A DNA stretch of 64,000 nucleotides from Verrucomicrobia bacterium ADurb.Bin018 (GCA_002071335.1 MWEZ01000001.1:7262-71261); one strand, 5' to 3'; counted from the stretch's first letter, positions 5,101-58,480 are shown. Numbers and translations: made by a program. The notes: a model not told the origin generated them from the letters alone.

Positions 5101-5237
5101 TTTTGGTGAGTGATTTTTGCGTTTTTATCCGAGTGGTTCCGCATGGGAGGCGCCAAACCCAAGACCCCTACTAAAAATCAGCGAAGGTTCCATTTGCGGC
5201 GTTGGCGGCGCTTGCGTTTACTGGTCTTCGGCTGCTG

Positions 5238-8566: not shown

Positions 8567-9838
8567 TTACTCGGCGGGTTTGGGCGGGGGTGTGGTGGCG
8601 GTCACGCGCTGAAAGTGGGCAAGGAAGGCTTGGGCGATGTCGCGATGGCGCAGGATCAGGACGTTTTCATCGTTGCCGTCGGGCGCGACGAGGCCGGAGA
8701 TGGTCCAGTTGGCGGCGCCATGCACCACGAACGGGCGGCGTCCGTTGGGGTCAATGATGGCGTATTTGGTGTGGACCAGATCGGGTTCGCCGGAATCCCA
8801 GGCATCGCTGATGGCGCTGGCGCGGGCGGGCAGCAGCACGACGCGGTTGGTGCCGGTGTAGTTAGCGGGGTCGGCAAAGTAGCGGGCGGTGGCCTTGGAG
8901 GTGGCAAACAGGTTGGTACCGCGATCGCTTTCGGGGATAACGCCAACAACCTTGATGCCGCGGTTGGCGGCAGCGACCAGATCGCGGCGCAGGGGCACGC
9001 GGTTGAAGCGGTGCATGGAAAAATAGATTTCTTCTTCGGCGTCGTGAATCAGGCGGCGGATGTCGGTTTCGGCGTTGACGGCGCCGTTGGTGCCTTTGGG
9101 GTAGGGACCGAAACGCACCCAGCAGGTGCCCCAACTGTCTTGCAGCCGGAAGTTGGTGCGGTCGTGCTGCTGCTGTTTTTGAGCGCCAAAGCGGCGGGCC
9201 TTGAATTCGGCCATTTCAGCGGCGAAGGCGCCGTAGAGTTCCTCGTTGCGGGCCAGCAGGGCGATATTCCATTGGTTCATGTTGGCTGCGCCGGTAAAGT
9301 TGCCGGAAGCCACCAGCACCCAGCGGTTGCTTGGGCCGTAGTCGAAGATGGCCACTTTGTGGTGCATGAGCGAGTTACGGGGCGAGACGGACAACACGAG
9401 CGGGTTGCGGCGGCGTTTGGAGAGGCGTGTGAGGGAGAGCCCCGGCGTGTATTCCTTGAACCGCTTGACGGCGCTATCCACCACAAAATGGACTTTTGCG
9501 CCGCGGTCCAAGGCGTGGTCCAACGCTTGCAGGATAGGCCCGGCGGCGCCGGTTTCGGTGGAGTCGCCGGAAAACGTGAAGGTGGCAATGGCCGCGCTGT
9601 TGCCATTGGAGAGGCGGTTGATGCCGGCGAGGAGCATATCGCGGATGACGTATTCGCCTTTGAGGAAAACTTCAGCCGATTGGGTGGGCAGGCTATAGCC
9701 GACGGCCCAATCGTTGCTGGTAATCAACTGGGCCCGGGCCGGCCCGGCCAGGAGCGCCCCCAGCAGGAGCAGGCGCCAGACGTACCGCCGGACTGTTTGG
9801 AGGCCGGCGCCACGGGGTTGTGCAAGCATCATCCGCAT
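8567..9838 (-). CDS. secreted phospholipase D family protein (two HKD motifs)
   Basis: HKD-like motifs HHKVAIFDYG...ASGNFTGAA and HTKYAIIDPNG...HGAANWT. Signal peptide after M39 of the listed ORF. Start trimmed to the ATG at 9838. Confidence 0.7.
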   Translation of the reverse strand: MRMMLAQPRGAGLQTVRRYVWRLLLLGALLAGPARAQLITSNDWAVGYSLPTQSAEVFLKGEYVIRDMLLAGINRLSNGNSAAIATFTFSGDSTETGAAGPILQALDHALDRGAKVHFVVDSAVKRFKEYTPGLSLTRLSKRRRNPLVLSVSPRNSLMHHKVAIFDYGPSNRWVLVASGNFTGAANMNQWNIALLARNEELYGAFAAEMAEFKARRFGAQKQQQHDRTNFRLQDSWGTCWVRFGPYPKGTNGAVNAETDIRRLIHDAEEEIYFSMHRFNRVPLRRDLVAAANRGIKVVGVIPESDRGTNLFATSKATARYFADPANYTGTNRVVLLPARASAISDAWDSGEPDLVHTKYAIIDPNGRRPFVVHGAANWTISGLVAPDGNDENVLILRHRDIAQAFLAHFQRVTATTPPPKPAE

Positions 9839-10056
9839 GTGATTCCACCCTTTGCTTGTTTTCATCAGCGCACCGGTGATTCTCCACGGAACCGCGCGGG
9901 ATGGAAAGGATGAAAATGGCGCGGCGGGGGTCCCGGCGCAAAAACGTTCCACCCGCCGGATGCTTTTGTTTTTTGCGGTTTGCTGTCGAACAGGCTAGGT
10001 TGACAGATGCCGTTTTTTTGGTTCCCCTTGCGGCAGGGGTTTGGAGGTAATGGATT

Positions 10057-54883: not shown

Positions 54884-56800
54884 TTGCATGATTTTGGGCA
54901 TCTCGGCATCTCGGCATCTCGGCATCTCGGCATCTCGGCATCTCGGCATCTCGCAAGCCGTATAGCGCGGCATGTTTCTTTCCTAATCACCTCCCTGCTT
55001 CTTCCAATTTCTTCTCTTGCCGCGACGGCTCTGGATGTCCGCGGCGTCTCGGTCACCTTCTCCCCTCAGGGGGATTCTCTTTCTGAAATTATCCGAACGC
55101 TCCATTCCGCCAAGCGGCGCATAGATGTCGCGCCATTTTTCCTAAGCCATACCAATCTGATCGACACCCTCTGCTTCCTGTCGGCCAAGCAAAAGCTCAA
55201 GGTCCGCTGCTTCATGGACCCCGCCTCCACCGCTCCCGCTGAATGTCATGTTCTGGACCGGCTTGCCCAAAACGGCGTCGAGGTCTACGTGGTCCAAGTG
55301 CCCGACGGCAAAATGCACCTCAAGTGCGCCGTCGTGGACGACGGCGTTGTCATCACCGGAGCAGCCAATTGGACGGTTCGCGGATTCGAAAACAATGTCG
55401 AGGATTCTCTCTTTCTGCAATCCCCGGCCCTTGCTCAAGCCTATCGTGCGCGTATGGATCGTTTGCTGCCAATTTCCGAACTTTATCATGCCCCCCGCCT
55501 TGACGACTCCGAACGCTTCGAGTCCAAGCCCAGCAAGCTTTCCCAAAGTAAACCCCCGACGCTGACATATGCCGCCCCGCGGCTCCAGCGCTTCAGCTCC
55601 GTCCGATCCGCCCGCGTCTTCTTCTCCTCTGATTCCGAACCCGACAACGGATTGTTGGCATCCGAAACCATTCTATCCCGCATTCACGCCGCCCAGAAGC
55701 GGGTGGATGTCGCCATGTATCTGCTGGTTGAACCTACGCTTGTCGAGGCCCTCGCCCAAAAAGCAACCGAGGGCAAAGTGCCCGTTCGCCTGCTTGTCGA
55801 TTCCGGAATGCTCGACTCTTCTTCGCGAACCGTGCTGGAAACACTCGTGGCCGCCGGGGTGCAGGTGAATTGGCTGGGCAACGAGAAGTTCAGTATGCAT
55901 CTTAAGACGCTTGTCCTGGACGAAGCGCAGGTCTGGACCGGCTCCGCCAACTGGTCTCAATCCGCCTTCGCGCACAACATCGAGGATTTGGTTCTCATTG
56001 AGTCCGCCGATCTGGCGCGCGCCTATACCCGGCACTTCGACACCCTCCATGCCGCCGCAACCCCTTTCCAACCCGCTTCTCTTTCGGTTTCAGCACCATC
56101 CAATGCCCCGGCCTCCGCCGAATTCCCCATCGGCTTGCCACCCACCGGTCCCCGCACCAACTGGCCGTCTGGCCTTCAAGACGTCGCCAGCGAAGACCTC
56201 CTTCTTTCCGCCTCCGCCCGCTATCTCGCCGACGAAGAATACCTCCCCGCCTTGCTGGACCTGATCCGAAATGCCCATCAATCGGTCCTTGCCTCCATGT
56301 ATGTCATGGGCGAGCCCCAAAAGGACCAACCCAACCTCAACCAACTCACCGCCGCTCTGGCGCAGGCTGTTCAACGCGGAGTCTATGTCCATCTGGTCCT
56401 CCACATGCCCCTGTCCGAAGCCGTCACCATGAACCAAATCCATCTGGACTGGGCCGAAAATCTCCGCGCCAAAGGCGTGGATGTCCGCTTGCATATCCCC
56501 ACCATCCCCCTGCATGAAAAAGTCGTTGTCGTGGACCTTGCCAAAGTCCTGATCGGCTCCCACAATTGGTCCGAAGGCGCCCTCTCCAGCCAAAAAGTCA
56601 CTGAATCCGGCGTCCTGCTCGTCCTGCCCCAACAGGATCGGCGGCTGGCCGACCATATCCTAAACCGCGAATCCATCCGCGACATGCGCACCCCTGCGCT
56701 TTGGCAGGAGGAGTTGCGCACCCTCCGGCAACTGGGAAACACTTCCGGCAAGGAACGCGACACCCTCCTCGATCAGCTCGAACCGGAGGAAATGCCGTGA
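54884..56800 (+). CDS. secreted phospholipase D/nuclease family protein with three tandem HKD domains
   Basis: HLKCAVVD...GAANWT, HLKTLVLD...GSANWS and HEKVVVVD...GSHNWS. Hydrophobic signal-like segment after the repeat-encoded N-terminus. Only a TTG at 54884 is in frame upstream, so the start is uncertain. Confidence 0.55.
   Translation: MHDFGHLGISASRHLGISASRHLASRIARHVSFLITSLLLPISSLAATALDVRGVSVTFSPQGDSLSEIIRTLHSAKRRIDVAPFFLSHTNLIDTLCFLSAKQKLKVRCFMDPASTAPAECHVLDRLAQNGVEVYVVQVPDGKMHLKCAVVDDGVVITGAANWTVRGFENNVEDSLFLQSPALAQAYRARMDRLLPISELYHAPRLDDSERFESKPSKLSQSKPPTLTYAAPRLQRFSSVRSARVFFSSDSEPDNGLLASETILSRIHAAQKRVDVAMYLLVEPTLVEALAQKATEGKVPVRLLVDSGMLDSSSRTVLETLVAAGVQVNWLGNEKFSMHLKTLVLDEAQVWTGSANWSQSAFAHNIEDLVLIESADLARAYTRHFDTLHAAATPFQPASLSVSAPSNAPASAEFPIGLPPTGPRTNWPSGLQDVASEDLLLSASARYLADEEYLPALLDLIRNAHQSVLASMYVMGEPQKDQPNLNQLTAALAQAVQRGVYVHLVLHMPLSEAVTMNQIHLDWAENLRAKGVDVRLHIPTIPLHEKVVVVDLAKVLIGSHNWSEGALSSQKVTESGVLLVLPQQDRRLADHILNRESIRDMRTPALWQEELRTLRQLGNTSGKERDTLLDQLEPEEMP
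54897..54953. repeat. octanucleotide tandem repeat (CATCTCGG), about 7 copies, inside the 5' end of the triple-HKD PLD gene
   Basis: Read directly. The unit length is not a multiple of 3. The in-frame translation is HLGISASR HLGISASR. Confidence 0.85.
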
Positions 56801-57576
56801 GCCTCCGCTATTCCCTCCTTTCACTCCTCTTGTTGGCTCGGGCGACCTTCGGCCTAGCCCAAACCAACCCTTCCGACCTGATTCTCCTCCGCAACGGACG
56901 CGAGCTTTCCGGTCGCCTCATTCAGGAAACCTCCGCCGGATATGTTCTCATCCCGGCGGGGGCCCCCACCCAAATCCAGCGCATTCCCCGCGAAGCCACT
57001 GCTTACGTCCTCTATGCCGATCCAGCCCAGGCCGCCAAACTCCTCGGCCTCGACTCCGTCGCCCGAAATCTCTCCAAAGCCCCCGCCCCCGCCGAAGTTC
57101 GCCTCCTCGCCGCCGAACCCTTCGGCAAAGCCCTCCTCGAAGCCGCCCGTTCGGCCACTAACTCCATCTGGATTTCCGCCTACTACTTCAGCGACAGCCG
57201 CGCCGCTCCCATCAAAGATTTCTACGCTACCCTCCGCGAAAAAGCCGCTGCCGGCGTCGAGGTTGTCATCCTCGTCGAAAATAGCACCGCCTCGCCGCCC
57301 GCCATGCGCCGCGCCAATGCCAATTTCGCCGCCCAACTCTCCGGCGACGGCATCCAAACCCTCCTCTGGAGCGGCACCAACAAAGCCCTCCATAAAAAAC
57401 TCGTCATCATCGACGGACGAATCCTTTTGCTCGGCAGCTCCAACCTCTCCCTTTCCGGCACCTACGGCAGCATCGAAATGAACATCCTCACCGAGGCCCC
57501 CCACCTCGTTCAACCCGCCATTGCCGACTTCCAGCGCCTCTGCACCCAACTCAAGCAACGACAGGCTGCCCCATGA
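56797..57576 (+). CDS. secreted single-HKD phospholipase D family protein
   Basis: HKKLVIIDGRILLLGSSNLS. Signal peptide. A GTG start overlaps the upstream TGA (GTGA). Confidence 0.55.
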   Translation: MSLRYSLLSLLLLARATFGLAQTNPSDLILLRNGRELSGRLIQETSAGYVLIPAGAPTQIQRIPREATAYVLYADPAQAAKLLGLDSVARNLSKAPAPAEVRLLAAEPFGKALLEAARSATNSIWISAYYFSDSRAAPIKDFYATLREKAAAGVEVVILVENSTASPPAMRRANANFAAQLSGDGIQTLLWSGTNKALHKKLVIIDGRILLLGSSNLSLSGTYGSIEMNILTEAPHLVQPAIADFQRLCTQLKQRQAAP

Positions 57577-58265
57577 CCTCCCTGCGCACAACTGGCTACG
57601 CTTTGTTTACCCTCTTGACTCTGCTCCAACCGCTCTCTGCCGCCCCAAAACTGATCATCAATCCCGAGACGTTCGATTTCGGCGAGGTACCCTCCGGTGA
57701 ATCCGTTCAGGCCACCTTTACCCTCCGCAACGCTGGCGATGAACCCCTCCACATCAACCATGTCCGCACCAGTTGCGGTTGCACCACCTCTCGCCTGGAC
57801 AAACGCGAACTTGCTCCCGGAGAAGAAACCCCGCTAACCGCCACCCTTTCCCTCAGAAACCGCAGCGGCCCCCAACACCAGCGCGTCACCATCGCCTCCA
57901 ACGATCCGGATGCCCCCTCCAGGCAGGCCCACATCCAGGGAACCGCCGTCCAATACCTCACGTTGACCCCCTCCGCCGTCCTACTTTTCTCCGCCCCCCA
58001 AGGGCAATCCATTACCCGAACTCTTTCGCTCCATTCCGAAAATCAGACCCCCTTCCAACTTCTCTCCATCGAGGTCACCCATCCCAATCTTACCGTCGCG
58101 GTCACGCCGGTCTCCCCCAGCTCCTACCGCCTCGCCCTCACCATCCCCGCCACCTGGCCCGCCGGACGCATCAACGAATCCTTACGCATCCACACCGACC
58201 ATCCCCACGCCCCGATGCTGACTTGCTCCATCACCGGAACCCTGCAAACTGGAGACAACCCATGA
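57573..58265 (+). CDS. DUF1573 domain secreted protein
   Basis: FDFGEV...FTLRNAGDEPLHINHVRTSCGCT signature. ATGA overlap with the upstream gene. Confidence 0.65.
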   Translation: MTSLRTTGYALFTLLTLLQPLSAAPKLIINPETFDFGEVPSGESVQATFTLRNAGDEPLHINHVRTSCGCTTSRLDKRELAPGEETPLTATLSLRNRSGPQHQRVTIASNDPDAPSRQAHIQGTAVQYLTLTPSAVLLFSAPQGQSITRTLSLHSENQTPFQLLSIEVTHPNLTVAVTPVSPSSYRLALTIPATWPAGRINESLRIHTDHPHAPMLTCSITGTLQTGDNP

Positions 58266-58480
58266 TCCCGCATCGCCCATGGCCGCTATTATTCCTGACA
58301 CTCGCCCTCTGGACAGGGGCCTCCTCCGCCCAGACTTGGACCACCGTCTGGACGCCCGGCTCCGCCCCCGCCCCCACCCACACGAAGATGGAACAAGAAA
58401 TGGAACCAGAAAAAGACCACAAATCACCGACCAACTGCTATCCCTGCAAGGAGTGGGAAGCCTACGGCGACGGCACCGGC
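58186..58480. repeat. conserved 5' module copy 1 (DUF1573 3' end, ATGA junction, signal peptide, TWTTVWTPGSAPAP...NCYPCKEWEAYGDGTGKWV)
   Basis: Near-identical to 61988-62290 and partly to 63650-63940. GC-rich relative to downstream sequence. Confidence 0.75.

Follow-up and report, generated by a model that had tools for sequence, protein, structure and literature searches.

We analysed a 64,000-nucleotide (nt) stretch of DNA from Verrucomicrobia bacterium ADurb.Bin018 (GCA_002071335.1, MWEZ01000001.1:7262-71261), hereafter the window, and identified a locus in which two genes of the PLD (HKD) superfamily, a DUF1573 gene and a putative effector gene follow one another with four-base overlaps and, as their sequences indicate, are probably co-translated as one tightly packed unit. 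The anatomy of the locus and its conservation, natural fusions of the first two genes, rearrangements of the effector cassettes among strains, polymorphism of a tandem repeat at the start of the first gene and one pair of relatives frame-shifted with respect to each other were observed directly. Taken together these features lead us to favour, by a modest measure, a reading of the locus as a coupled secreted-effector operon in which a complex of 3+1 HKD domains accompanies effector cassettes swapped at anchor repeats, with expression set by the tandem repeat. The same locus is present on contig DAOSMU010000002.1 of the Kiritimatiellia metagenome-assembled genome (MAG) GCA_035372765.1 and in many other metagenome assemblies, and the source organism is an uncultured Kiritimatiellia bacterium.

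Overlapping genes and the 3+1 HKD pair

All four genes lie on the plus strand, with positions counted from the first letter of the window. Gene 1 (54884-56800) encodes a triple-HKD protein (PLD3-type) of 638 amino acids (aa) counted from TTG, gene 2 (56797-57576) a single-HKD protein (PLD1-type) of 259 aa counted from GTG, gene 3 (57573-58265) the 230-aa DUF1573 protein and gene 4 (58262-59041) effector cassette A, 259 aa counted from ATG. The junctions consist of GTGA (56797-56800) between genes 1 and 2, ATGA (57573-57576) between genes 2 and 3 and ATGA (58262-58265) between genes 3 and 4, so that the four open reading frames (ORFs) and their overlaps stand where an earlier note on this DNA had placed them. 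A GGAGG Shine-Dalgarno sequence for gene 2 (56785-56789) falls within gene 1 close to its 3′ end, lies 7 nt ahead of the GTG and is kept in orthologues, while the gene 4 ATG has a GGAG 7 nt upstream (58251-58254). Four-base overlaps are frequent in operons and are therefore unremarkable by themselves. The conservation of the junction between the two PLD genes does go beyond chance: of 24 related loci examined, 23 have (A/G)TGA there, and the remaining one is a fused four-HKD form (L017). Gene 2 starts with ATG or GTG at one position across species, the overlaps and start positions are kept, and no terminator-like sites were found between genes 1-4, all of which agrees with the note's description of a single coupled unit. 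All four N-termini, of proteins that the note had described as secreted, have the look of Sec signal peptides, called by eye and from the helices of AlphaFold2 (AF2) models.

Pfam assigned three PLDc_2 stretches to the gene 1 product (220 bits) and one to that of gene 2 (75.8 bits; cut-off 27 bits for both), DUF1573 (PF07610) to gene 3 (86.3 bits, cut-off 26.1) and, marginally, a prokaryotic phospholipase A2 (PLA2) domain to gene 4 (PF09056, 31.8 bits, cut-off 29.4). A signal-peptide-like core ends near aa 50 of the gene 1 product and is followed by domains D1 (~aa 50-200), D2 (~236-393) and D3 (~440-600). Their HKD motifs are HLKCAVVD (55316-55339, aa 145; H145, K147 and D152 invariant), HLKTLVLD (55898-55921, aa 339; H339, K341 and D346 invariant) and HEKVVVVD (56513-56536, aa 544; at least 90 % conserved). 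The gene 2 protein comprises a signal peptide, a beta-rich N-terminal region of ~90 aa and a domain (D4) with the motif HKKLVIID (57391-57414, aa 199). Each of the four HxKxxxxD motifs is intact and is followed by G(S/A)xN. Across 20 homologues the three motifs of gene 1 either never vary or show conservation of at least 90 %, so none is degenerate, a possibility that the earlier note had raised for the 638-aa protein. That note had also called a three-HKD layout atypical, and full-text literature searches indeed yielded no description of triple-HKD proteins. What it overlooked is that the odd count is settled by the neighbouring gene, three and one making four domains that also occur as natural fusions.

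Relatives of gene 1 were collected by a profile scan of one genome per species, which returned ~30 full-length loci with 37-81 % identity, often two or three per genome and restricted to MAGs of Kiritimatiellia, Verrucomicrobiota and Lentisphaerae. The PLD3-PLD1 pair is syntenic in ~25 loci of the Planctomycetes-Verrucomicrobia-Chlamydiae (PVC) group across the same range of identity (37-81 %), and a gene 2 homologue comes next in nearly all loci whose sequence extends far enough downstream, L012 being the sole doubtful case. In one sublineage the two genes are fused: L017 carries one ORF of 913 aa with four HKD motifs, in which the gene 2 part starts past its signal peptide. Other fused four-HKD members were recovered with gene 2 in HMMER searches from separate 50 %-identity clusters (P0093 of 804 aa, and the fragments P0108 and P0102); the fused form has therefore been kept in evolution and is not an assembly error. 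Conserved pairing and fusion suggest that the 3+1 pair probably works as one complex.

Profile comparison showed D1 and D2 to be close duplicates (hhalign E 1.7e-44), with D3 and D4 each distinct (E ~1e-13 to 1e-17). The AF2 model of the gene 1 product contains three confident domains joined by low-confidence linkers (aa 200-235 and 399-443; predicted TM-score (pTM) 0.58), and in Foldseek ~400-450 columns of it, equivalent to about two of the three HKD domains, align to two-HKD enzymes including PLD3/PLD4 exonucleases, a bacterial PLD, PssA and F13. The simplest reading would pair D1 with D2 within the chain and D3 with D4 between chains, giving two composite sites. The linker between D2 and D3, disordered and of low confidence, contains an almost invariant GLPPTGPRTNW motif (56132-56164) which is kept in fused forms and may, as one possibility, represent a docking segment. 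We considered the motif as an LPXTG-like sortase site and rejected it, since it is internal, has T-A in some members and comes with no C-terminal sorting signal.

By sequence all four domains are closest to the single-HKD proteins MitoPLD/Zucchini, NucT, Nuc and DrmC, always below curated cut-offs: the best score against the NucT/Nuc equivalog (NCBIfam PRK13912) was 98.6 bits against a threshold of 211, and that against DISARM DrmC, summed over three domains, was 131.8 against 133. Neighbours of the locus are ABC, MiaB-like, DUF1573 and effector genes, without DISARM context. PADLOC and NCBIfam returned sub-threshold DrmC and NucT matches alone, and a reading of the locus as a defence system was rejected. 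Because the domains are nearest to single-HKD proteins of nuclease type, the label phospholipase, which the earlier note had attached to both proteins in naming them PLD, is insecure, and from sequence a nuclease function for the 3+1 HKD proteins appears just as plausible as a phospholipase function. Elsewhere in the window a second, unrelated PLD-superfamily ORF of 461 aa (8567-9952, minus strand), with a weak tblastn match to HKD domain 1, is probably a housekeeping gene of cardiolipin-synthase type.

Putative effector cassettes and the DUF1573 protein

The 3′ end of the DUF1573 gene and the 5′ end of the effector gene form an anchor of 320-480 nt which precedes each downstream cassette. Copy 1 (58187-58510) comprises the last 79 nt of the DUF1573 gene (stop codon 58265) and the first ~250 nt of the effector, which encode its signal peptide and conserved N-terminal region. 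Copy 2 (61993-62316) is 90 % identical to copy 1 and includes the DUF1573 3′-end remnant, and copy 3 (63651-64000, 79 % match to copy 1) leads into cassette C (ATG 63707), which continues past the end of the window; both are on the plus strand. In longer contigs some copies begin as early as the equivalent of 58120, and the remnant at each cassette measures 60-145 nt. The earlier note had recognised that the end of the DUF1573 gene is reused as the cassette anchor; the three copies in the window confirm this and comparison of strains shows that rearrangement takes place there.

Five effector types occur in this species, sharing their first 83-104 aa and diverging thereafter: A (259 aa, PLA2-like), B (263 aa, with an HEQYH motif), C (53 aa, truncated), and D (306 aa) and E (353 aa), in which no feature was recognised. 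Cassettes are ordered A-B-C-D, A-B-E-C, C-A-B-E, D alone or B-D in different strains, and strains whose DUF1573 is identical, or whose PLD genes are 98-100 % identical, hold A, C, D or B at the coupled fourth position. Anchor variants are mosaic, one effector occurring with different variants. Four cassettes at the coupled position in near-identical strains, together with the mosaic anchors, establish that recombination at the anchors does occur. Conserved N-terminal parts with variable C-termini, and extra cassettes with homologous anchors, are features of polymorphic toxin systems; a search of the literature for polymorphic toxins of Kiritimatiellia found nothing. In one strain, in which DUF1573 is followed by cassette D alone, the gene directly downstream encodes an rve-family transposase and runs on the opposite strand (L004, 10634-11683), and in another the truncated 53-aa cassette C occupies the coupled position, effectively a null effector state (L085, 5344-5505). 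An apparent DUF1573-effector fusion ORF in L008, a MAG scaffold of the same species, was rejected as an artefact of a 100-N gap.

The effector of cassette A has 21 cysteines, a signal peptide, the conserved N-terminal part and a PLA2-like C-terminal part, in which the marginal PF09056 match coincides with a CCxxHD motif (CCIEHD, 58820-58837, aa 187). Three exported low-GC ORFs (59071-60423, 60501-61034 and 61107-61883) always travel with it and are immunity candidates, as is the exported ORF (62850-63626) paired with cassette B (62068-62859; 263 aa, 17 cysteines, HEQYH at 62572-62586), all of these being on the plus strand. The guanine-plus-cytosine (GC) content is 45-49 % for the ORFs after cassette A and 53 % for that after B, compared with 59-62 % for the head of the operon. 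Each effector is likewise accompanied by low-GC exported ORFs, and all of the ORFs that follow effectors have signal-peptide or lipoprotein-like N-termini, as expected of periplasmic immunity proteins. The HExxH of effector B and its surrounding C-terminal region recur in secreted cysteine-rich proteins encoded downstream of distant PLD pairs (L014, L016, L017, L021 and L028), suggesting from sequence an undescribed metallopeptidase-like effector family.

The DUF1573 protein consists of a signal peptide and two Ig/ASH beta-sandwich domains in the predicted structure (predicted local distance difference test (pLDDT) score 90.6), and Pfam also matches it to the HYDIN/ASH Ig-like domain. Its nearest folds in Foldseek are Hydin and ciliary ASH-domain proteins, P. 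gingivalis 2qsv and CEP192. A role as a PapD-like chaperone was rejected, there being no match of PapD/Caf1M type among the top 50 Foldseek matches, and no functional work on DUF1573 was found in the literature searched. Orthologues form a tight group (60-99 % identity, 230-233 aa), beyond which identity is at most 40 %; they are confined to a close clade, where the order is PLD3-PLD1-DUF1573-effector in every species checked and the flanking genes differ. Distant PLD3-PLD1 loci are all without DUF1573 and usually have genes for secreted cysteine-rich proteins directly after the pair, with common N-terminal motifs (PCxEW and CKECDGxG) and variable C-termini, several of them with HExxH; Pfam found no family in ten genes downstream of distant pairs. 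DUF1573 therefore tracks one effector type and not the PLD pair, and the partnership with PLD that the earlier note had envisaged does not hold generally. The broader pattern is a PLD pair linked to secreted cysteine-rich proteins.

The repeat at the start of gene 1

Between the possible start codons and the signal-peptide core of gene 1 lies a perfect tandem repeat of seven units, (GGCATCTC)x7 (54897-54952, plus strand), for which 0 matches are expected by chance. With seven units the only canonical start in frame with gene 1 is the TTG at 54884-54886, which lacks both a Shine-Dalgarno sequence and conservation in other species. A family-conserved ATG (54888-54890) shortly before the repeat does not lie in the gene 1 frame in this allele and opens a peptide of 25 aa ending at TAG 54963-54965. 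The earlier note had accepted the start at 54884, and the 8-bp repeat within its own coordinates, on which it would depend whether gene 1 can be translated at all, had escaped it. In the window sequence 4, 7 or 10 units would leave open the TTG frame only, 3, 6 or 9 the ATG frame and 5 or 8 neither. The window allele, with its ATG out of frame and the TTG start alone open, therefore suggests a low or off state, as read from the sequence.

All species of the close clade carry at the start of gene 1 an array whose units are 7 or 8 nt long, with the sequences GGCATCTT, GCATCTC, CGACATCT and CATATCGA, and six distant loci have arrays of unrelated units (AGCCGTCC, CACGTCAG, AGACGCC/CAGACGC and CGTCAGC). 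Defined as at least four perfect units of 5-9 nt, arrays numbered 34 in 1.46 Mb of fetched loci, all 34 of them where triple-HKD genes begin, at the 5′ end. In no lineage is the unit length, 7 or 8 nt, a multiple of three, and repeat-bearing lineages keep an ATG 6-20 nt ahead of the array despite the unrelated units. Among 12 resolved contigs of this species, eight samples have seven units and four have four, with the TTG frame open in all; another species has 7 or 10. The region in L015 and L018, which share 92 % aa identity, differs solely by 14 nt of repeat, so that the family ATG matches the frame in L015 and is shifted out of it in L018, with the L018 ORF intact in other respects. L018, L009 and L011 have no in-frame start ahead of the signal peptide. 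A perfect 5′ repeat whose unit is not a multiple of three, and a change in copy number that alters the frame between relatives, are both marks of phase variation. The scaffold L008 contains runs of N at the 8-bp repeat (1666-1772) and at the DUF1573/effector anchor (5134-5233), as expected if the population were heterogeneous at both sites, and these hint at such heterogeneity. An exact-pattern scan of JGI metagenome contigs gave no match to the ATG-repeat junction.

Several smaller features adjoin the array. A small stem-loop with a T-rich tail (GCCGTATAGCGCGGC ATGTTTCTTT; 54957-54971) lies just past the repeat in the window and contains the TAG that ends the ATG-frame peptide. The corresponding position in L006 and L007 reads TAGTG, the GTG being the start codon before the signal peptide, and in L007 the upstream-ORF frame stops at this TAG, overlapping the start. 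Two loci of one related species (L098, 5230-5400; L099, 551-720) have ~150 nt inserted between the array and the signal-peptide region, flanked by a short GCTAG direct repeat, which looks like the insertion of a small mobile element.

Interpretation and comparison with known systems

We propose that the four genes head a secreted-effector locus and are read together as a single translationally coupled unit. Genes 1 and 2 would form one hetero-complex in which D1 is matched with D2 of its own chain and D3, left without a partner there, with the HKD domain of gene 2, yielding two putative composite phosphodiesterase sites built from Nuc/NucT/Zucchini-type domains. Gene 3 would supply an exported tandem-Ig (ASH/DUF1573) binding or accessory protein, found solely with this effector family, and gene 4 a small Sec-exported cysteine-rich effector, a putative toxin whose N-terminal part is conserved and whose C-terminal part varies. 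Behind it would follow putative periplasmic immunity genes and then further complete effector/immunity cassettes, homologous recombination at the anchors swapping the effector in the coupled fourth position. Gain or loss of repeat units would shift the frame of gene 1 and so set its translation and, because genes 2-4 are coupled to gene 1, the repeat would set the expression of the whole operon. We infer operon-wide polarity and switching within the population on these grounds, and enzymatic activity, toxicity and immunity are predicted in the same sense. Far more speculatively, and in our estimate quite improbably, the 3+1 complex could be the constant machinery of a new PVC effector system, not itself a toxin, which might be required for releasing, activating or lipid-modifying (by transphosphatidylation) the cysteine-rich effectors encoded after it at almost all loci, with the Ig-like DUF1573 protein as an adaptor in one clade and the repeat switch gating all.

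A number of observations weigh against the operon reading and are considered here beside the alternatives to it. The two PLD genes might encode independent, co-regulated enzymes, the triple-HKD protein homodimerising through D3 (three sites per dimer) and the single-HKD protein pairing with itself as Nuc, NucT and Zucchini do. Among solved structures, those most closely related to each domain are indeed homodimeric single-HKD nucleases, and D4 shows no specific similarity to D3, being no closer to it than to D1 or D2 in profile-profile comparison. Moreover, ~45 gene-2 clusters in an exhaustive HMMER search are stand-alone proteins of 245-300 aa, far outnumbering the fusions, which are rare and which indicate functional linkage while leaving the pairing of domains unassigned. 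Such independence nevertheless appears unlikely given a pair that stays syntenic with a conserved 4-nt overlap down to 37 % identity, a fusion kept in several clusters with its internal signal peptide lost, and the near absence, the doubtful L012 apart, of triple-HKD loci with enough downstream sequence and no partner. Alternatively the pair could be an exported nuclease or phosphodiesterase with a NucT-like housekeeping role in nutrient scavenging or DNA uptake, the secreted proteins encoded beside it being unrelated and the operon no competition system; domains of Nuc/NucT type with signal peptides, and two or three paralogous loci per genome, often without DUF1573, would suit this role. We give it little credence, as distant loci too usually have a secreted cysteine-rich gene next, with a common N-terminal motif, a variable C-terminus and in several cases HExxH, as the genes overlap and are coupled, and as repeat-controlled expression combined with cassette shuffling is typical of conflict and surface-variation loci. 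The immunity candidates have no recognisable family in Pfam, NCBIfam or PADLOC bar a weak HEAT match, and no secretion route across the outer membrane was identified.

The repeat, for its part, may be no switch, but either be translated from TTG as a variable n-region of the signal peptide, (GISASRHL)n, or act as a tuning element in the 5′ untranslated region (5′ UTR) or an upstream ORF, which we regard as possible though clearly the less probable account. In its favour, the alleles within two species (4/7 and 7/10 units) differ by exactly three units, or 24 nt, so the frame is preserved and a translated N-terminus of variable length is compatible with them; frame switching was not seen within either species, and no contig of the window species has the TTG frame closed. 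Eighteen distant loci are without a repeat, and L006, L007 and L010 have a GTG or ATG start downstream of it, so that the repeat there would be 5′ UTR or upstream ORF, the upstream ATG of L010 being out of frame with an offset of 1. Such a role sits less easily with units that are never a multiple of three, an upstream ATG conserved although the unit sequences are unrelated, the frame-shifting 14-nt difference between L015 and L018 with the ORF otherwise intact, the want of an in-frame start before the signal peptide in L009, L011 and L018, and a TTG that is neither conserved nor preceded by a Shine-Dalgarno sequence. It is also conceivable, if doubtful, that the cassettes are ordinary tandem paralogues produced by unequal crossing-over and all expressed by read-through, with nothing special about the coupled position. 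Every downstream cassette is a complete gene with a signal peptide and the same ribosome-binding site of its own, terminator-like sites occur only after cassette B, and the cassettes might thus all be expressed by read-through and not switched. Against this stand the DUF1573 remnant that each cassette keeps, from which it follows that recombination restores an intact DUF1573-effector junction, and the four different cassettes found at that junction in near-identical strains.

The conserved 3+1 split with its natural four-domain fusions would represent a new way to build HKD active sites and makes the pair a clear target for structural and biochemical work. Contingency genes under repeat control and effector/immunity cassettes that recombine are best known from pathogens; the operon that we propose would mean that uncultured Kiritimatiellia employ both as well, united in one coupled operon. 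Metagenomic reads already available would allow questions of competition and population heterogeneity in such environmental bacteria to be tested directly.

Known HKD enzymes either carry two domains in one chain or form homodimers of a single domain. The proteins nearest by sequence profile to all four domains, Nuc of Salmonella, NucT of Helicobacter, MitoPLD/Zucchini and DrmC, have one motif per domain, which must pair with a second to make a site, as would be the case here, and Nuc and NucT are likewise exported by signal peptides. The single-HKD nucleases are homodimers of one domain, whereas here four domains are divided over two chains (3+1) or fused as four. DrmC is accompanied by the DISARM genes (DrmA, DrmB and methylase), whereas the proteins here have signal peptides and stand outside any DISARM context. 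Two-HKD enzymes (bacterial PLD, PLD3/PLD4, PssA, cardiolipin synthases and vaccinia F13) are pseudo-dimers resembling about two domains of the gene 1 model; the present locus has a third such domain and, encoded by a second gene, a fourth that is obligatorily linked. PLDs of Tle5 type, such as Tle5/PldA of the type VI secretion system (T6SS), are antibacterial effectors with periplasmic immunity; here, in contrast, no T6SS genes are nearby and the signal is of Sec type.

The closest parallel in gene order is with the Neisseria Maf islands, in which MafA-MafB-MafI is followed by alternative MafB-CT cassettes and secretion of MafB requires MafA (PMC7738311; PMC4287609). Like these, the present locus combines a putative Sec toxin, conserved towards the N-terminus and variable towards the C-terminus, with a small exported partner before it and candidate immunity genes and alternative cassettes after it. 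It differs in that the cassettes are complete genes, the anchor spans the 3′ end of the upstream gene and the PLD pair has no Maf counterpart; neither a MafA homologue nor the DUF1020 N-domain of MafB was reported by Pfam or NCBIfam for genes 3 and 4, and the resemblance is organisational only. Contingency loci offer the parallel for the repeat: Neisseria opa genes carry CTCTT repeats in the signal-peptide region and Haemophilus lic1 has CAAT repeats with alternative starts. As in these, the repeat is perfect, its unit length is not divisible by three, its copy number is polymorphic and it lies between start codon and signal-peptide core; a pair of starts that differ in frame could allow graded levels in the manner of lic1. 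The units here differ from those of opa and lic1 in being 7-8 nt long, the hosts are uncultured environmental and digester PVC bacteria and not host-adapted pathogens, and the genes concerned form a four-gene coupled operon. The parts, namely Nuc-type HKD domains, polymorphic toxin islands and contingency loci, are thus known, while the 3+1 architecture, the boundary-spanning anchor and their combination in uncultured PVC bacteria are new to the literature that we searched.

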